Source: Balanoglossus misakiensis
Taxonomy: Eukaryota > Animalia > Hemichordata
DNA: 64,000 bases
Assembly (NCBI GenBank): GCA_040954595.2
Contig: CM082587.2
Span: forward strand, 5,258,206-5,322,205
Reading direction: 5' to 3'
Under the pieces are notes generated by a model. The model made no database searches, was not told the origin of the DNA, and saw only the letters and a program-made list of their open reading frames with translations. The position numbers and the translations under genes were made by a program. This document shows positions 13,255-48,000 of the stretch, piece by piece (position 1 is the first letter of the stretch; each line of letters opens with the position of its first letter).

Positions 13255-16200
13255 TCAGTAACCCCCACCTCTGCCATAGCCACCACCCCTGCCTCTAAAT
13301 CCACCCCCACCCCCTTGGTACCCATACCCACCACCCCCTCTGTAACCACCACCCCCTCTGTACCCTCCTCCATTGCCACCCCTGAAACCTCCCCCGCCCC
13401 CTCGGTAGCCACCGCCTCCTCCATATCCACCTCCACCAAATCTTGGTCTGTTGCCTAGGTAACCGCCACCTCCATAACCTCCCGGTGATGAAAATCTTGG
13501 ACGTTGAGCTGATGGGGGACCAAACCTGGAATGGCAACAAAAAGTACAAATCAATGCTAATTGCATTTCTTCCAGTCCAGATTTACATAGTTCACCCAAA
13601 CATATCTGAAGGCTTCAATAAGATGCTGTGTGCAAGAAATGGTATTCCCCCAGAACTCACCCTGACGGTCCACCCTCCTTGACACCGGAAGGCGCGTTCT
13701 CAACGCCGAATTTGCCAGCGTTGGGTCTGGACAGCATTTTGATGGCAGTGATCAATTTGTCCTCTTCGTCGGCGGGGGCGTCGACGCTCTCCGGGTCGCT
13801 GGAGATCTTGATGATCAGTCTCTCTATCGCAGGACGCAGTGCTACAATCTTGGCCGCTGTCTGGTGCGGCATGTTCAGATTGATCCTGTGAACAGAGGGT
13901 TTGGACATTGACAACTGATCATCAACAATACTTGGCTGTTTTTTTTTTTCAAATCTGGTCACAAAGACACCACCTGGCACTTTGAAGGCACTGACAGTTG
14001 GAACACAAAGCAGCTGGCAAAACGCTGGAAGACAGGGATGTGCCCCTGGGGACAGAGCTAGACTTACCAGTCGTCCAACTTGATGATGCCATTACTGGAG
14101 TCCACAGCCCTCGCTCCGAACAACAACAACTGCAGCGGTGACACCATGGTCATCTGTTTGGCCGAGACTGCACGCGTACGCAACTGAAACCGAAACCAGA
14201 CAACAATCATTAATGGGGAGACGTTCTTGAATGTGGGGGAAATCCTAGTGTCAAGCATGCATTCTTATCATAATGTAACTTTGAAGTCTTCATTTTCTGT
14301 TGATTTGTTCAGATTGATACCAACAGTGATGCCAGAAGTGTAAGGCAAGCAGCCTACAGACAAGTCTAGTATTCCAGACAAGTCTAGTATGTCCAGTGGG
14401 ATTTTCCTTCATAAGCCAAACACTAATCCTCCCCAAGCACCCCAGTGGCATTCTAGACGTACCTTCTCGCCGAACACGAAGAACGGCGACGGGAAATTCT
14501 GATCTCGGTTGCTGCAGTTGACGGAGTGCTTGTGGATCAGGGCGGCTTTGCCTTCCGTGGTCAGAATTTTCCGCTTCTCCTTGTGGTAGCAGACGTTGGG
14601 ATAGAGGCCCATCACCAGCAGAGTGATGATCACGTCCAGCTTGGCGTCGGGACCCGTGAAGTTGAAGATCTGGGGCGCAACACAGTCTGGAAGGGGAGGC
14701 AGAAAAAGAGACGTAGTGATCAGTTGGCTAGTTTGTAACACACCTTATCTGCAGACAGTTTTCTCAACACTATATCCACTTCCTCCCTCAGTGCAAGAAT
14801 TTTATTTTCACGCAAATGTTCACCATCATATAACACTTTTAAACACCATACCTTCTGGGAAATCAGAGCTGACAAGAATGTCTTTCAACTGATTCTGAAA
14901 AAAAATGAAAAAGAAGTGATTTACTAATAACATAAGTCTCATTTCGCTCCTGCAAATAAATCCAGGGTTACGAAGGCTCGTTCTTCCCCAAGACTTACTT
15001 TGGCTTCAGCTGTCATTCTCAGTGTTGGCATTGAGAGGGACTTGGAATCACAGAATCTGCTCTCGCTGTCCTCACCATATGATCTGTACATGAATAAAAG
15101 CACCGATAGTTTCACCGATAGTTTCAGGTAATTTGAAAACTTCCACAGCACTGATATATGAAAGACAGATTTTCTGGTACCAGAGGTGCCTTTAATAGAC
15201 AGGTTTCACTGTAGTTTAAATCACAACAATGACATTCTCCTCAATACATGTACTCCTCCCCTTAGTGGAGTGCGCACGAAAACTCAACCTACCTGGCTTC
15301 TTCCCATGCTTGGTGGGCATTCAACATGGCCACGTGGTCGCTGTAACGGGTGCCAGCATACTGCCGGTGGACCCAGTTCAGGCGTTTGGTGTCGGTGACA
15401 AACGGCTCCGGGAAGCAGGTGCTGGCCGCGATGGTGCAGACAGCATCGGCGAGACTGTGCAGAGAGATGCAGATATTCTTGTCAGTATTGGTTATTACTG
15501 TTCTGGGAGGGGGAGGGGAGCGGGCTAAGATTGGCCAAAAGACCGTGTAGGTAGTTCAGACAATGACCACTCCATGCAATACTTACTAGAACTGGCAAGA
15601 CAACACAATAGTCTTGCCTAGGCGTGGCTCGATCGGCAACTTGGCCAAGATGCGACCTAGGGGAGTCAGCTCATCGTTGCTATCTAAGGCATTCATTTCT
15701 GAAAAATAAAAATATATTTGTGAGTTGGCAGTGATATATTTGTGAGTTGGCAGTGACACACCCACATACACGCACACACACGCCACAGAAAATCCTAGAA
15801 GTCGCTTTACCTCGCAGTAAGACTTCTGCTTCAATGACAGCATCGATGGGAGGCGGTTCAATCGCCTTGGACAGGAACGGTCCAATTCCACCGAGGCGCA
15901 GCAACTTGATGGCGAGAGACAACTCGTGCAGCGGTGTACGCAAGATCTCCGGCGTGGAGTGTGTGTCCAGTCTGTGGAGACAGATGATGTTCACAAGGGT
16001 CGTTTAGATTTTTGGTTGTACACCAACAATTCAGTTCATTAATAATGAATGGAATTATTCTTACAAATTTTGGTTGTCACCAAATATACACTGAAATCAT
16101 TTCGCTGTACTGACTCAAACCGTCTTCTGATTTGGCAGTGTATCATAACAAAGAGCCACGTTCAAAGCAACATCACAAAGACATACTCACTTTGCAAATC

Positions 16201-17545
16201 TGGCCCTGCTGCAGAGATGAAAACTGAAGCCTGGCCTCACTCTTCCAGCACGGCCTCGTCTCTGTTCCAAGTTGGTTTTGGACGCCCACACGGTGGCGTA
16301 GTTCGTCATGTTGTTGTGCGATGTGAACAGTTTCATCTTTGCCCTTAAAAAGGAGAAACACACATCAATTCTCACAACCTTAAATAGCTGTGTGCTCCCT
16401 AGGCCAGTGATACAAATGTGGTCTGCAGAATTTCAACAGGGCAGCATTCTACCGTGTAGGAAAGCGTATGCATATATACTCACTTGCAAGAATCAATGAC
16501 AAAGACCACATCATTGATGGTGATACTCGTCTCTGCAATGTTGGTGGACAGGATGATCTGTGGAAAGAGACAAGTTACTTATCAGGTCCCAAATCACAGC
16601 AGCCAAAGTCATGCTGTTTTATATACACATGTACATGTACTATTTCCAGCAGAAACTAAAATGTACTCAGAGAGTATTTCTGCCCTTGACTGCGTGACTA
16701 TTTCCTACTACGACTGACCTCAATGCTGCCCCCCCCCCCCCTTCCCAATACCCACCTTTGTGACTCCATCAGGTACAGGCTCAAACACCCTGTGTTGGTC
16801 TTCTCTGGGTATTTGAGAATGCAGTGGTAAAATAGCATAGTTTCGACCTCCTGAAATACAAATAGTATAACGGAAGGATTCAATTTGTTGTGGTGATGGT
16901 GGCTGCTGTTTGTGATTTGACAGTTGCTGGGTTGAGAAAAAAAAAACTGACCAAACTCCGGATGGTCCTGCAGATGCCTCATCAGAGCAAAGATGAGATT
17001 CCAACCAGGCAGAAACACCAGAACTGCACCAGGGACGCCCAGCGACTTGATGTACTTCAGCAGTGCCTGCAACAGCGAGTAAAATATGACAGATGAAGAA
17101 AACGAGACATTTAAAAAAAAATCAAGACAAGGAAATTTCAACTGATAAACTAGCGGGGAGTTTGTTGAAGACTTCATCATTGGTAAATTTTTGGGGTGAA
17201 TTTTTAATAAGGGAATATAAACAGGAAACATACGCCAATTTCAGAAAGTTATTTACCTCGATAAGTTCAAATGACATTTCTTTTTCACTCATATTTGCCA
17301 TGGCAGCTTTGGTAGCAGGGCTATAGTCTCCACTGATCACTTTGTTCAGGTTCTCCTGTATTGGAAAAATATCACAGAGCAAATTCAGGAAAAATTATCA
17401 AAATTAACAAACAAATGTCTGTATATCCACAGGTATGTGTATGCTAGTATGTGTGCCCCAATGCATCAGTGGTCTTGTCTGTTCTACCCAGAATGAATGA
17501 ATGAATGAATGAATGAATGAATGAATGAATGAATGAATGAATGAA

Positions 17546-17644
<99 letters not shown>

Positions 17645-20600
17645 ATGAATGAATGAATGAATGACAGAATAGAATGTTGTCAAGACAACAGGTACTTACG
17701 TCATCATCATCTGGTGTCTCCTCTTCATCTCTGTCTTTCCTCTTGCGACTGTCCGGCGGTGGTACAAACCCCACCATCTGAATGGAATCTTCCAGATAGT
17801 ACTCTGAAAGAACAGGTACAGGTCAACAAGGATTACAATATTTATATTTGTGTAAAGATTTGATACCGGTAGTTTGAATGCAGCTGTCTCCAATAGCACT
17901 CATGCAGTAACAATTTTTCTAATACCATACCTTGTACTGGGTGGGTTCTACCATGGACCTCCACGACGGGACAGTTACCGAAGTATTCCGAGAACATGGT
18001 TGTGTCGATAGTGGCCGACATCAGGACGATCCTCATGTCCGGAAAGGCACGCACCATGTCGCGCAGCACAACCAAAAGGAAGTCAGTCTACATGTAGGGA
18101 AAGGGTGCAGTCTCACATCATATATTTTCACTCATATGTTTTCATTGTGAAATCACACATGTAGTATAGTCAGTGCAAAGAAAATAATCCCAGTGCAAAA
18201 ATGCAACTGTATCGGGATATCCATTCAACTCCTGAATTGCGGTTCATGTTACTTACATTGATGTCTCTTTCATGGATTTCGTCCACAATAACGTGAGAAA
18301 TCCCACGCAACCCTGCTTCCAGCTTACGTAAAAGCGTACCTGAAATCCAAGTAAATTTGTTTGATTTTAGTAATTTCACAAGATTACCTGTTGCTATGAT
18401 ACTATAGGGCCACACTGTACTCTATCAAAGTTATACAATCACCTCTATGGTAATTAATTAACCAAGTCTTGTGCGATCATCATCTCGCACAGACAGAAAA
18501 CACCACTGATAAATTACAACCACACAACATACCTACAGTACAGAACAACATGGCACCCAAGGCCCTGGGCAATGCCGACTCAAATCGCACCGAGTAGCCA
18601 ACACTGATGCCAAGCTGTTCGCCACGTTCAAAGGCAACTCTCTCTGCAACGGACACTGCACTGATACGCCTTGGCTGTCGAGGAAATTCCATGAGAAAAA
18701 TAGATTGTTCAGTAGGAGTGTACATGTCATTGTACAAAACATGTAAATACTAGAAGAGGATAACATTATACATATGCCCCTTTAACCCATTTGACACTGA
18801 GAAAGAGATGTCGGATATTTACCTGTGTGACAATTATATTGCAGTGTGCTCCCTGGCCCATGTGGATCAGCTCATCAAGAATAAACTGCGGAACCTACAT
18901 ATGAATCAAAACACAAGAGCTTTTAGACTGAGATAGAATGCACTGTAAGTTGGTTTAAAAGTGTTTGTTGCAGTCCTAATTACCAGAGTTGGCTACTACA
19001 TAGAGGTGGCCACTAACACAGGTTTGACATATATAGTGTCATGTTCATTTAATGACCCCACCACAACCTGATATGATTGTATTGTCGGAATAACAGAAAA
19101 CGTAAATGCCATTTTTGCATCTGTGTTCTAATACAAACAGAACGATTATATTTCTGATTTCATTACCTGTGTGGTTTTACCGCATCCAGTCGCACCCCTG
19201 ATGATGATGACCGAGTTGTTGTGCACGGCGTCCAGGATGACTCGCTCAGAATCCTTGACTGGTAAAGCTGCTCGCTCTTGCAACATCTGTGGAGGAAAGA
19301 GCGCGGAGACAATATTCAAACTTTCATTCATTATTCAAAATCTTCGGGGCACCTGTGTACAAGTACAGACCAATCACTGCGTGCAGAGTCACTCGGAGAG
19401 TAACAGACAAGCCAACTCACCTTTTGAAGATCTTGATCGTTATCTTTCTGATGATTGATGGATCGTAGCAGATCTTTGCTGATGTCTTCCAGTGATGCCT
19501 GAGGGGAGAGAAAGTGCACAGGATTGGAGACGATAACCTGGGGGGAGATAAATAAAACATACATGCATCCATACATCCTTACATACATACATACATCCAT
19601 CCATACATACAGACGCAACCGATCCCATAAGGTCACACTGGTAAATACATGTATGCCTATACAAATGGTACCTAAAATCATGTTTCTGCAAAATCAAGGG
19701 CAACTCGGAATACTCACATACGCCAGTGGTCCCTCGTCAATATTGCAGCTGGTCCAGGGATTCCAGTTCTGCTGGGGCGGAGACCAGGGCACAACGCCCG
19801 GACCGCTCACCGGATGAGACTCCTGGAATCTCTCCTGCCTTCCCAGAACAATGGACGTGCCGCTGTTGGATTGTTCTTCCTGATGGGAAAAGTGCAACCA
19901 ATAACAGGTGAATATGTCTACACGGACAGAATTGCTGCGTGTTTGAGATTTTAACATTGAGAAATCATGTAGAGTTTGATCTATTCTCATGACCTGCAAA
20001 CTGCCAGTTCTTGCAAGTTCTTCTCTTTTTTTGTGTGCCCAACTTCCCGTGACATGGAGATTAATCAGCTCTGAAGTGAAAGAACAGTCAGAACACGTTT
20101 TTTACCTCTTTCACCTCTGAGTTTTCAGGTACTGGCTGGATTCCATAGGCCTCCAACACTTGGGAGAGCCTGCCTTCAAGTTCTGGGTTGACGCCAACGT
20201 TGTAAGGGGCAAGCTGAAAGACAAAATGGATTAAAAGTTCAACCATCACATTCCTTCAAAAAGTTGTAGGCAAACCCACAGAAATGCAAACACTGGGAAA
20301 CAGGTCCAAACTACAAAGTTGGAGTCAATGAAGAACACACCTCATCCACCTCTTTCTTCTGTTTCGGTCCGCCGTACGCTTCAACGACACCAAGATGATA
20401 CAGCTGCCTGACCAACGACAGGGCACAGGCTTGCGAGGCAATTTTCTTGTTAGAGCCATGCTCTCGGCCGTACACATCTGCAAATAAAAGAGAAAAAACA
20501 AAACTTGACTGATGCATAAGTTTGATATCACCTCAAAACTATCCACAGTAAGTAACCACCAAAAACACTTGTCAAAAATAAAAATATCGGCACTCACTTC

Positions 20601-21739
20601 TTTTGAGCTGTTTCACAAAGATTGTCATCTCAGCCACAAAACTCCTGTAAATACAATTGATTGTAAGTTATAAGGCATGCATGGTCAATGCACAACAGCA
20701 TAATTACATGGCTTAAACAACAGATTTTACCAACCTGCACTGTATCGAAGGTGCCATACTGCTATGCTGCACTTTTCATGAAGACAATACACACACGTCT
20801 TGTAGTCAGTCTCTCCTGTCACAACCTTGGTGTGTTACCTTCAAGTGGTAAAATGACATCAAAAATAACTCATTTTTTTTTTTTTTCGTTCATTCCATTC
20901 CTGTTGCCTGAAAAAGTCTGTTGTGCGACATTCCCAGGCAACTCAAGTTTGAAGTCAAGGTCATTCCAATAGAAATTTCACTGAAATTATTATGTGTCAA
21001 TTTTTAGCATAGTTATCGTGTACACTGCAACTTCAATCAAACAAGCCTGTTTCAGTTTTTCAGTTTTGAATTCAACTCCCACAATTCTAGACTGGAGTGA
21101 TTCCTGATGTCATTTCCTGTTTCGTAGTCTGAAACGTAACACACCAAGCCGACAGCAAGTTTCGTCGACTGGCTCCTGTTGAATTCTCAGACACAGCACT
21201 TCGGTCTGACCCACCCAACAGACAGCCAGACAGAATTGTGGTATTGGCGCACGAAGCCGGGGTTCGTACACGCAAAGAAGTTCGAAATTCCAGCATTCTG
21301 AGACACGTTTTTACAGTGACTTTCCATGCACAGGTCAAAAATCTATATTTTCCACAAATGCTGGATTTCTTGTATTCATGAAAAGTGCAGCATATTCTGT
21401 CAGAAGCCGAATGGTGCATGCATTATGTGTGGACCAATCAGCTTCTTCCGAGTCTCTGTGAGAATCGGTACCTAGGATCTTTTCATACAGAAAAGAAAAT
21501 AGGTACAAACTGAGGCACTTCGGGACAAAGAACGAGTCTTGACGACAGCTGTGATGTACGACAGCTGTAGCTCTTTACTGGCGTGTACTGTGTTACCTAT
21601 TATGATCAGGTCCTACTGTGGTGTACTTGTAGTCGGCATTGACCCGATTTGTCTGCATGAATTGATGAAGCCGCGATTTGGCATTATCAAATGTCCAGTT
21701 TCCGTGGAGACCAGCATTCAGATCAACACTCTCACTCTG

Positions 21740-21776
<37 letters not shown>

Positions 21777-23019
21777 AAATAAATAATTAAATAAATAAAG
21801 CCAAAAGTTACAGCTAATGTCCCTTTAATGCCTGGCGTTTTCCTTATGTTGCGTACAAGTACATTTACTGGGTTGGGAAACTCCCACACTCCCCATATAT
21901 TAATGCACTGTTTGTGATCGGAAAGCATTTTACCTCCTCAAACTTTTTCTTATCGCCAACAGCGTCAAAATACTTCTGTCTGAAATCAGCGTGACCCCCT
22001 CCGGGCTGGTTCGGATCAAACAGTGAAGGGATAGTGGTACTGGGCTGTGGTGTCCCACCAGATAAACCTAGGGTGTTTTAAGCAAAAGCACAATTTTAAT
22101 GAAGTTAGTACATTCCACTAGTAGTCCTGCATCCTCAACACTATGCACTCACAAACCCTTCGTTGATGTGGTCTGGAATCTCCTCCTGTAGTACACTGCG
22201 ACCTTGCTAATCAACACTGCCAAATAGACTTGCTTGAAATAAGAGATAACTCAATTTGAAAGCCTGAATGTTCATTGGTTATCTATACTCTTGGGTCTTA
22301 AACAGGAAGACCCGAAACAAACAGGTATATCCAGACGATGCATGTGTACGTGTATTCACACTCACCTTCCACAACATGCGGAGGTGGGGCAACTCCGGGA
22401 GGGAGCTCAGTACCCCCTCCTCCTCCATCACCACCACCACCTCCTCCTCCTCCACCATCAGTCTGTACATCCCCTCCTCCCAATCCAAGAGGAGCCATCT
22501 GCGAGAAAATAAAATTATTATGACATAAAGTTGTATTATGGCATTCTTTCCCAGGTAAATATATGTTGCAAAATTTGGAGTTGACCTCATGATGGCGCTG
22601 TTCACACTCACCCCAGTCTGGGGCACCTCTGCCGCCTGCACATTGCCTGTTCTTACAAGGTAGTTAACAAAGTCCCTGGCCGCGTTTGCCTGTGCATCTT
22701 TCTTACTTGTGGAGTTACCGACACCTATGTAGTCGAAGCCTTCAACTCTGACCTGTGAAGTATGAAGTAAACATTGATTTTTATGAGGTCCGTGAGAATG
22801 CTTATCATAATCATGACCTCTTGTGTGAAAATCGTGGTTGTGTATTAAGAGAATATCATACTTTCTACACATTCATTTCGACAGCAAGTAAAGGCCTGAT
22901 TTTCTTACTTCGCACATGAACCGCTGGCGGTGTTTAGAACCCGCTGTCTTGAATTCATAGTTTGGTACAACTTTCCTCTTCCCACAGTAGGAATACAGGA
23001 AGTTCTTGATTTCTGCCAT
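13255..23019 (-). CDS. DHX9: ATP-dependent RNA helicase A (DHX9/maleless), 30 coding exons, about 1267 aa
   Basis: Exons: 22909-23019, 22612-22752, 22366-22498, 21934-22067, 21597-21736, 20598-20644, 20341-20477, 20106-20213, 19718-19879, 19421-19498, 19167-19286, 18823-18894, 18533-18674, 18257-18339, 17931-18087, 17700-17803, 17257-17355, 16952-17066, 16756-16850, 16484-16557, 16191-16343, 15811-15971, 15587-15698, 15293-15454, 14999-15083, 14852-14894, 14463-14686, 14068-14183, 13661-13885, 13255-13525; all GT-AG and phase-compatible. Motifs: dsRBD1 (KNFLY...[18 protein letters not shown]), dsRBD2 ([10 protein letters not shown]...[23 protein letters not shown]), [43 protein letters not shown]-terminal RGG/GY tail. 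Confidence 0.97.
15711..15754. repeat. Tandem duplication of a 22-bp unit (ATATATTTGTGAGTTGGCAGTG x2) in a DHX9 intron
   Basis: Direct repeat seen in the sequence. Confidence 0.8.
17491..17663. repeat. Compound microsatellite (GAAT)n(AAAT)n(GAAT)n
   Basis: Seen directly, inside a DHX9 intron. Confidence 0.97.
20763..21394 (-). promoter_or_regulatory. Nested inverted-repeat (dsRNA) element in the DHX9 intron
   Basis: Exact reverse-complement pairs: 20763-20782/21375-21394 (20 bp), 20826-20838/21136-21148 (13 bp), 20851-20861/21105-21115 (11 bp), 20903-20910/20935-20942 (8 bp), 21289-21297/21357-21365 (9 bp). All are mutually compatible (nested). Confidence 0.8.
20839..20907 (-). other. Candidate 69-nt poison (premature stop) cassette exon in DHX9
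   Basis: Acceptor gactttttcag| and donor AAG|gtaaca. In the phase-2 frame it reads [15 protein letters not shown] (TGA). It lies in the largest DHX9 intron. Confidence 0.6.
21741..21797. repeat. (AAAT)n microsatellite forming the polypyrimidine tract of a DHX9 acceptor
   Basis: Seen directly. Confidence 0.9.
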
Positions 23020-23085: not shown

Positions 23086-23166
23086 CACAGGCTCTGGAAT
23101 ACCACTAACCTAGGGGGCCCGATTAAACACCGGGCCCCCCAGGTACGTGGTATTCCAGAGCCTGTG
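23086..23166. repeat. 81-bp near-perfect hairpin (MITE-like) just upstream of the first DHX9 coding exon
   Basis: CACAGGCTCTGGAATACCAC (23086-23105) is the exact reverse complement of 23147-23166; inner arms ACCT-GGGGGCCCG / CGGGCCCCC-AGGT. Confidence 0.8.
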
Positions 23167-45093: not shown

Positions 45094-48000
45094 TGTCCTA
45101 GTCATAAATGAAACAGATACTAGTAATGCAAAAAGTGCATGAGTGCACGAGAGTCAAGCATAAAGTCGATCATAGAGATGAATAGCAAAGAAAATCTTCG
45201 CGCTGAAGTTAATAGCAACTAACGCTGGTTTCTTGGCTTGTCCACCATCGCAGGTGTCTCTGATATTTGACTGTGCATCAGTACCGTTTGAAGAACTATT
45301 AGTTGATAGCGTAATATTTTTGGACTTCAATATCTCACATGCCAGTTTCCTCACTTCAAGGCCACAGTCTGTATAGAAGGTAATAAAACAATGAAACAGC
45401 AATGTAAGGGTACATTAGATACGACAGTTCGTTGACACATGTCTGGGCGTGAAGACTAGATTGTATTTCTCACAGAAGCTGGGAGAGTATCCCCGAGATA
45501 TATAAAAGAGCACAATGGATGACACATTGATATGACGTCACTTACGACAATTAGGATATCCTGTGCAGCACACCACATTAGAATCCTGCCCGGAACACTT
45601 TCCATCGACGTACGACATGTTTGGACAGCAGTCAGCGACAACACATCGACCACCTTCAGCTTCGCAGGAGTATTCTTGAAATGAAACTGGGAAAACAAAG
45701 GGATGTTATCGTCTGTCAGTTAGTGCTCTCTGTTACTCCCGAGGAGAAAATATAAGAGTCTTTTAATACATTTTAAATATACGAAAAGATTCAACTCACG
45801 GCATTTCACTGGGAGACTCTGGCAGCACTTTACATTAGGCCCCTGCGTTGGACACTTTCCACGCACGTAGTTATTATCGGCACAGCAACTCCTCACAGTG
45901 CATCGACCCCCGATGGCTGCACAATTATCCTCTTGATAAGGACCTAGATGAAAGAACATGTTTTGTCACATTCAGTGGACATGGTTGTGTGTCTAGCCAA
46001 ATACAGATACGAATACCAGTCACGTGGCCAACTCGGGTAGATCATGTCACAAAGAGAGGTGTTCCCCCCCCCCCCACACAAAAAAACAAACAAAACATTT
46101 TCAAATTCACACCGTCACACATTTGCATTGTTACTCTCTTAATAACCGAGAAGACTTTATTACTCTCGGCCGATCTGCAGACAAATCCCACATACCTTCA
46201 CTGTAGCTGTTCGATTTAAGACAGCATTTGACATCGCCCGGTAGATTTGGACATTTGTTTGGTACGAAGTTACCACCCGAACAGTCACTGGTATATTTAC
46301 ATTCTCCACCTATAGCTTTACACGCTTCCCTGTTGGGTGCTTAAAGTATTTAATAAACGTGTTAGTAAACATATTTTAGGAAGTTTACTTTTGATTATAT
46401 TATACCAGTATATTGATGGTGTAAATCACGCTATTTGATTGGTCGAGACACGACACGTGACCGTGATATATTAGCCATATACCACAGTCATATATCATAG
46501 TTAAAGAAAATGCCTTTTTAAAATGTTTTATGCAAAGTTTCAATATACTGGCATAATATAATAGCAATAAAACACCCCCAGCCATGGTATACCACTCGAT
46601 TTTGACCAGTTCAACTCCATATACGCACTCGCTATCGCTCGTGCGTATATGTCGTGAACTGGTCAAAATCTCGTGATATACCATGGCTGGGGGTGTTTTA
46701 TTGCTTAAATTAAACATGTCTTGAGATACGATAAAAACCGAATCATCCGCACTTATACTTATAGAGCTGTGAAAGTGAAAGAGACGGTATAGGTATAGCT
46801 TTTTAAATGGCTGGCTTTTTTAATCGTATGCAATTATCCGCGAATGAATGTTATACATTGTGAATTCAGCATGTAAAGTTGATATTGGTTGAGCAAAGTA
46901 AAGGTCTGATGATATGATAAATAAACTCACGTTCTTCCTGTGGGGGGCTCACGGCAAGTTGGTTGCTGGATAGAGCATCTGAAACTACCTCGCCGCCCTT
47001 TGAAATGGCCGAATTTTCCGGCGAGGGAAATTTCATCGCGAGACATCTCCCAACTTCATTGTTGAACAAATCGAGGACTCTCACGTCGAAAACGTGCACG
47101 TGGGTCCTTATTCTCGTATCGCCATATTCCTTCGCCATATCGTAACCATAAATATTTGCAATGACGTACATCACCAGTGCATTGAAGAAAGCTTGAGCCT
47201 GGATGCTGCCTACAAGGTGTAGAGTGGAATACTCTTGAAGTGGGTTGTATTGCTACTCAACTTCCGGGTATATGACTTGCATTGGAATAGAGGTCAAGGG
47301 TGAATATTACCCCCGGCAGTCATAATTATCATGGTATACTATTTCCTCAAATGTTATATCGCAACACGGACTATTGCTCCGTAGATCAACCCCTTTTCTA
47401 GTATTTTCGTGAAATAAAGGAGGCATCAATAAATGGATCTTGTCAGACTCTGACAAGTCTTTCCAAATTAATCGGAAATTGCGGACACCGTTACAAAGAA
47501 ACGATATGTTCTTGTCATCATGAAAATTGTCGCATGATGTGGTCGTCGTCTTTGCACGGTTGCGTTGAGTTTTGGCCAGGTGACATATATATATATATAT
47601 AGGGCGCAATTCATGGCCTACCAGAGACCCAAGTCTTGCACCTAACTTCTCAGCGAATCAGATTACTGGTGTCAGATCAAACATATTATAATCATGTCTT
47701 ATTTTACCTGTTTCGCCGAACTTTTCCTTAGTAACAAATTCGCAGTCAACGATAATTGTATTCAGATCCGCCCTTGGGTTCACCACAGCGAACAGTACAT
47801 CTCTGCTCCCATATGGATCAAAATGGAAAGACTGGTACAAGTCTTCTTCGCTTGGACGTGTCCTGGGCATGCGCAATGCATCTAAAACCACATAAAATAC
47901 GCTAAACGTACTTTTTCAAGGCATGCGACTTTTAAATCACAATATTTTAGAGAGTGTAGAACGTAGTTGACGCATGGATGGATGTCTGTCTGTTCGCTTT

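Follow-up and report, generated by a model that had tools for sequence, protein, structure and literature searches.

Can an RNA helicase gene hold, in one of its own introns, a structure through which the enzyme limits its own production? The question is raised by the gene for DHX9 (RNA helicase A) of the hemichordate Balanoglossus misakiensis, located in a 64,000-nt stretch of genomic DNA (the window; assembly GCA_040954595.2, contig CM082587.2, positions 5,258,206 to 5,322,205), in which the longest intron of the gene contains a candidate stop-codon exon lying among complementary segments. An initial annotation of this DNA had proposed that the segments form helices over a poison exon, one that would commit the messenger RNA (mRNA) to nonsense-mediated decay (NMD), and that DHX9 opens them. 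Structure prediction indicates that the helices can form and that they exceed chance, and the structure is a real and constrained one. It is hypothesized that the candidate exon, clamped by nested long-range helices, is a negative-feedback switch opened by abundant active DHX9, and we place the probability of such self-sensing by DHX9 at about 50%. Its two parts differ in strength: a structure-gated poison exon is likely, and given such an exon, DHX9 is somewhat favored as the opener.

Predicted nested helices and allelic constraint in the DHX9 intron

The DHX9 gene of the window encodes a protein with an RGG tail and 64% identity to Branchiostoma DHX9, which was placed as its sister by FastTree (support 0.977) in a reference set without hemichordate or echinoderm sequences. 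The exon upstream of the intron, ending in the residues GPDHN-R, matches the second double-stranded RNA-binding domain (dsRBD2) in structures of RNA helicase A, and the intron, in phase 2, splits that domain after GPDHN-R. The initial annotation had singled out this intron for its length, and the 31-exon model bears this out: among the 30 DHX9 introns it is the largest at 952 nt, followed by introns of 344 and 279 nt. The 344-nt intron owes its length to a long (ATTT/ATTC)n microsatellite at 17490-17660.

All four helices that had been proposed (H1 to H4, Table 1) were recovered at their original coordinates. The closing helix H1 consists of 20 exact bp, or 24 of 25 with its extension; H2 has 13 exact bp; H3 has 11 exact bp plus a G-U extension; and most pairs of H1-H4 are predicted at high probability when the flanking exons are included. 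Predicted pairing covers both candidate acceptor regions. A stem of at least 20 bp arose in none of 2000 dinucleotide shuffles, nor did three stems of at least 11 bp (0/2000), and the helix domain folded at a z-score of -5.4, compared with -1.0 to +1.4 for 13 control windows. A lone 20-bp stem is not unique in the window, because further long inverted repeats (36-51 bp) occur near 23.1 and 46.6 kb. At the gathering score, Rfam gave no match in the window and none in three related loci (L057, L014 and L052).

Constraint on the helices is visible between alleles. Two sets of DNA contigs (runs X1 and X2) derive from one heterozygous sample, maybe the source of the window itself, and represent a second allele rather than a second population. 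In these contigs the intron has 35 substitutions and 7 indel events, 42 allelic variants in all, with two further differences near a contig end unlisted. None of the 42 falls within the 152 nt of H1-H4 (P ~7e-4 if sites are independent). The 60 nt of the three 5' arms are likewise free of variants amid variable flanks (P 0.016), the flank at 21234-21347 alone carrying 19 substitutions in 114 nt and 3 indels. Selection on the helices is supported by these allelic data and by the paired helices kept in relatives, in agreement with the selection on RNA structure that had first been claimed.

Two observations concern the variable parts of the intron. A side hairpin at 21247-21271, in a variable loop, has three allelic C-to-U changes that stay paired as G-U on the transcript strand; all three are at CpG, which makes them weak evidence. 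Near the 5' end of the intron, at 21527-21549, the second allele has 123 other letters in place of 21 bases.

Human exon 6A, the candidate exon and related loci

The intron occupies the position of human poison exon 6A. The forward primer for 6A (PMC7072589 supplement) runs through the GPDHN-R codons into 6A, and the human residues match; the same match supports the earlier assignment of the flanking exons to human exons 6 and 7 and of the intron to that of the NMD-inducing exon. Human 6A bears a stop codon, is stabilised by loss of UPF1, rises when polymerase II is slowed and responds to UV, etoposide and DRB, as described in PMC4741636; it is repressed by hnRNPM and SRSF3 and responds to knockdown of hnRNPM, SRSF3, SRSF1 and FUS (PMC7072589). 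The human and hemichordate elements have in common the gene, the intron after GPDHN-R, a premature stop and weak splice sites. In addition, the 6A donor AAG/GTCAGT resembles the AAG/GTAACA donor of the first exon model below, and both exons begin purine-rich. Unlike our account of the window, the passages on 6A in the two human papers mention no RNA structure, autoregulation or invertebrate counterpart (PMC4741636, PMC7072589). Comparison by eye of the window exon with primer-length pieces of human 6A gave no convincing match. A literature search, with most subscription journals and the preprint supplements outside it, returned no paper that links DHX9 exon 6A to RNA structure, autoregulation or conservation in invertebrates, and the element could sit in some published table of conserved structures.

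The 69-nt candidate exon with an in-frame TGA that had been proposed (model A) is present in the sequence; its limits are doubtful, and two other models were considered (Table 1). All three contain an in-frame stop with 24 introns downstream, so that the functional reading is independent of the choice of limits. In model A the acceptor lies under hairpin H4 and the donor within H2. Its purine-rich start, its AAG/GT donor, which resembles the human 6A donor and equals the donor of exon 6 in quality, and the invariant stretch that extends 150 nt upstream of its acceptor all favor it. In favor of model B, H3 has 8 of 13 pairs in common with a helix of the related locus L057, the other five positions remaining paired; the window, L057 and L068 all have an AG at an identical 19-nt offset; and the donor at 20734 is outside the closing helix, as in relatives. 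Against model B stand an AAG acceptor (1 of 30 in the DHX9 gene), a weak donor and the post hoc nature of the comparison. Because the matching helix of relatives is predicted to lie over a pyrimidine tract and a branch point, with an AG likewise offset by 19 nt, the junction 20839/20838, taken as a donor in the initial annotation, may be an acceptor or a dual site instead. We tentatively place model B slightly ahead of the other two, while model A is doubtful and model C, which joins them, unlikely; scores on a 30-intron splice matrix leave the three unseparated. The 14-A run of the candidate exon shows no indel in the X1 and X2 contigs, and it is not obvious what pairing of the stop codon would do for splicing. 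In a profile search, no truncated protein with a peptide from any window exon turned up among 157 sorted proteins. This sort (84 that fit intron read-through, 19 that end at R, 14 canonical, 17 foreign and 23 without the motif) gives no preference among the exon limits.

Table 1. Features of the DHX9 locus in the window (positions counted from the first nucleotide of the window)
Feature	Position	Strand	Remarks
DHX9 (RNA helicase A) coding region	13255..23019	minus	31 exons, open frame of 1275 aa
Exon ending GPDHN-R	21597..21736	minus	phase 2; counterpart of human exon 6
SFVAEM exon	20598..20644	minus	47 nt; counterpart of human exon 7
Structured intron	20645..21596	minus	952 nt
H1, 5' arm	21370..21394	minus	predicted closing helix; inside a 76-nt contig common to both alleles, 21348-21423
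H1, 3' arm	20763..20787	minus	within exon models B and C
H2, 5' arm	21136..21148	minus	
H2, 3' arm	20826..20838	minus	begins at the AAG/GTAACA site (model A donor, model B exon start)
H3, 5' arm	21095..21116	minus	
H3, 3' arm	20850..20871	minus	holds the stop codon in models A and C and, in model B, the likely branch point and pyrimidine tract
H4	20903..20942	minus	predicted local hairpin over the acceptor at 20908
H5	21284..21369	minus	predicted side helix 21357-21369/21284-21297; arms without allelic variants, loop variable
Core	20749..21059		311 nt without a listed allelic difference; contig depth allows 0 to ~2.6 hidden sites, a figure for the 738-nt contig
Exon model A	20839..20907	minus	candidate, 69 nt; in-frame TGA at 20861-20859; model of the initial annotation
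Exon model B	20735..20838	minus	candidate, 104 nt; stop in first full codon; donor CAG/GTTGGT outside the closing helix
Exon model C	20735..20907	minus	candidate, 173 nt; A plus B

A metagenome scan yielded 73 animal loci, and 67 of these were parsed: 56 carry GT at the phase-2 position of the window intron, 10 are without the intron, and one is unclear. In a cluster of 31 loci (group A), annelid-like on the tree, two conserved blocks can form long-range pairs. Partial loci and near-duplicates aside, both arms are present in 16 of these loci; there, paired cells number 223 of 240 for helix X and 229 of 256 for helix Y, compared with 20-52% in slid controls, over which the helices are favored by having been defined from one member (L010). 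The spacing between arms is 638-2911 nt. An 11-row alignment with 48 long-range pairs contains 12 both-side changes, a number reached in 3 of 2000 shuffles, and there are 91 G-U cells vs 27 A-C cells. The 3' arms of group A cover two AG sites, and a conserved donor lies 40-103 nt beyond, outside the helices. Long-range helices in the relatives are predicted to hide the branch point and acceptor and to leave the donor free. The same order was found in L057, L068 (where the contig stops before the donor), L052 and L045/L063, whose sequences are unrelated or distantly related. Of 29 pairs compared between L057 and L068, 5 have changed on both sides and 3 on one side, and 1 is broken.

Group A also has two conserved local hairpins after the 5' arms (L010:591-800), paired in 152 of 154 and 136 of 143 cells; these contain no splice site and are possible protein-loading sites. 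By best protein match the ten loci without the intron are mostly arthropod-like. In two compact arthropod-like genes, L001 and L058, the gap that holds the intron after GPDH is by far the longest observed, at ~700-800 nt vs 46-164 nt, and the 53-nt candidate exon of L058 combines a strong acceptor with a donor that lies under a helix.

Annotated proteins of other animals point to the same junction. We checked 26 named isoforms of 1031-1129 aa from ten protein clusters, excluding partial entries and other lengths. All but one (25/26) of these short DHX9 isoform models, from amphioxus, sharks, bivalves, gastropods and a crayfish, begin at the junction right after this intron. Three have a foreign N-terminus joined at R/S, and 22 open with the first Met of the exon that follows, a picture that intron retention or an intronic start would give as well. 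Isoform models of this kind usually rest on RNA-seq and give the longest frame that follows a premature stop. Unproductive isoforms probably arise at this junction across bilaterians, to judge from these models.

A proposed feedback switch, its precedents and its rivals

The dsRBDs of DHX9 bind duplex RNA, which the enzyme unwinds in the 3' to 5' direction starting at a single-stranded 3' tail; DHX9 also clears duplex RNA and R-loops. Under the proposed switch, default folding would hide the exon and yield full-length DHX9, while abundant active DHX9 would open the clamp, leading to inclusion of the exon and delivery of the mRNA to NMD. Unwinding would strip the 3' arms of H1, H2 and H3 in turn and so free the exon body, the AG and then the branch point. 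The included exon, with 24 introns downstream of it, would truncate the protein mid-dsRBD2 and lead to decay. We infer exon use in B. misakiensis, the exon limits, decay by NMD and the role of DHX9 as opener. DHX9 is put forward as opener because of its substrate preference, the recurrence of the clamp in DHX9 genes and a precedent in plants.

That precedent is the DEAD element of DRH1/RH14 and RH46, in which a helix hides an alternative 3' splice site and its opening yields non-coding variants (PMC12218528). A feedback loop has been shown for plant DRH1 and depends on its RGG tail (bioRxiv 10.64898/2026.01.23.701338). Both host genes encode RNA helicases with an RGG tail, DEAD-box in plants and DExH with dsRBDs here. 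The plant element is a single local hairpin of ~20 bp at an alternative acceptor, whereas the window has predicted nested helices round a candidate cassette exon, and helices of DHX9 introns span 0.3-3 kb. We take the plant element as a precedent that may work alike, with no shared ancestry implied. Autoregulation of RNA-binding proteins by poison exons shares the decay-coupled unproductive splicing, the sensor there being a sequence-specific binding site. BRD2 and BRD3 reportedly have structure-controlled poison exons with complementary regions around the exon; their proteins, unlike DHX9, are not helicases. A poison exon in DHX9 is already known from human 6A, so far only as a readout of stress and splicing factors; what this intron would add is a further form of structure-gated unproductive splicing.

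Several points weigh against the feedback switch and its conservation. The allelic data are limited to allele-collapsed contigs from one individual. The initial annotation had argued from G-U wobbles on the transcript strand for selection on RNA structure. This argument is weak at this locus: the fold energy of the intron agrees (-213.7 kcal/mol vs -192.7 on the other strand, 21 better on the transcript), but the z-scores (-6.1 for the transcript, -7.1 for the opposite strand) do not favor the transcript strand. All internal splice sites score weak on the 30-intron matrix, with acceptors at 1.7-3.0 vs a median of ~9.9. Conservation of the helices, likewise raised at the outset, holds in part: annelid-like loci keep paired helices, but BLAST of the window intron against the introns of relatives gave no significant similarity (best E 0.07), and homology of the architecture therefore rests on position and order. 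The match of the window to L057 (9 nt and the 19-nt offset) is post hoc. In group A covariation is modest, single helices being mostly not significant and only Z standing out, and kinship among the sequences inflates the shuffle tests. With either acceptor, all 15 group A loci tested give an exon with a stop or a frameshift, an outcome not unlikely for random exons of 40-100 nt. A ranking of 18 folded loci, made with no null control, showed no clear pattern in L001, L027, L037, L044, L055 and L056 and was ambiguous for L066 and L070; the arthropod-like L058 hides the donor instead. The intron is absent in L006, L012, L020, L021, L026, L030, L032, L038, L069 and L073, and any switch there has therefore been lost or replaced. 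Finally, the human papers credit control of 6A to polymerase speed, hnRNPM, SRSF3 and other factors (PMC4741636, PMC7072589), and "autoregul" and "feedback" have no occurrence in their main texts.

These human data feed the main rival, in which the structure gates a poison exon with polymerase speed or general splicing factors, not DHX9, as the only input, the outcome depending on which comes first, closure of the clamp or recognition of the acceptor. The reported responses of human 6A fit this account, and co-transcriptional long-range pairing would be naturally speed-sensitive. We regard it as rather improbable: it leaves unexplained why, in separate lineages and with different sequences, a duplex clamp should recur in a gene whose product is a duplex-binding helicase, and such inputs are compatible with an input from DHX9 as well. 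The structure might instead control retention of the whole intron, its recursive removal via AAG/GTAACA, or an intronic start, in place of a cassette exon. The internal AAG/GTAACA site (20829-20838) does repeat the first 8 bases of the true donor (21587-21596), as a recursive or dual splice site would. A similar internal AG/GT site with an immediate stop is found at intron position 555 of L066, and any upstream event that breaks the frame would account for the 22 isoform models beginning with the first Met of exon 7. However, group A keeps a donor-like CAG/GTGCGT downstream of the helices, the exons of L057, L068, L052 and group A do not begin with GT, and the predicted truncated proteins P0161, P0177 and P0183 have residues after GPDHN that are impossible from GT read-through, which makes these alternatives to a cassette exon quite unlikely.

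Two further explanations concern the duplexes themselves. If they were ADAR substrates, adenosine-to-inosine editing at the branch point or in the acceptor region could gate the exon. ADAR prefers A-C sites in UA context, and helix Y of group A has one A opposite C, in UA context, at 11 of 16 loci. None of the mismatches in the window helices (U-C, G-G, C-U and U-U) is A-C, and the exact helices there are just 11-20 bp, so editing seems very unlikely as the gate. Least probable, and largely refuted, is chance folding or a functionless, decayed inverted-repeat transposon. Other inverted repeats of 36-51 bp do occur in the window, but the helix arms are single-copy within its 64 kb. At 80% likeness only 8 and 7 contigs of the two whole DNA runs fall on the intron, and depth in X1 is roughly diploid, contrary to what a high-copy repeat would show; an inverted-repeat transposon (MITE) with high-copy arms was accordingly rejected. 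The helices also avoid allelic variation, and relatives keep paired helices in the same intron.

Tentatively, and with less confidence than for the feedback switch in the window, we suggest a sensor of helicase activity that dates back to the first bilaterians: DHX9 would have kept a multi-helix clamp on the poison exon within its dsRBD2 for more than 500 million years despite near-complete sequence turnover, and human 6A would be the same switch. If the conserved clamp is true, animals gain a helicase-sensing feedback hitherto shown in plants, DHX9 dosage control becomes testable with existing human exon 6A assays, and regulatory RNA architecture persists across phyla without alignable sequence. 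Inhibitors of DHX9, a cancer drug target in Ewing sarcoma (PMC7072589), would in that case hold the clamp closed and thereby increase DHX9 mRNA, and clamp-opening oligonucleotides would silence the gene.

Other inverted repeats in the window

Just upstream of the DHX9 start codon at 23019 lies a 36-bp hairpin (23086-23166; 92% complementary, 9-nt loop) that may represent either a small mobile element or a structure in the leader. At 46383-46705, two inverted repeats of 51 and 34 bp overlap and are MITE-like.
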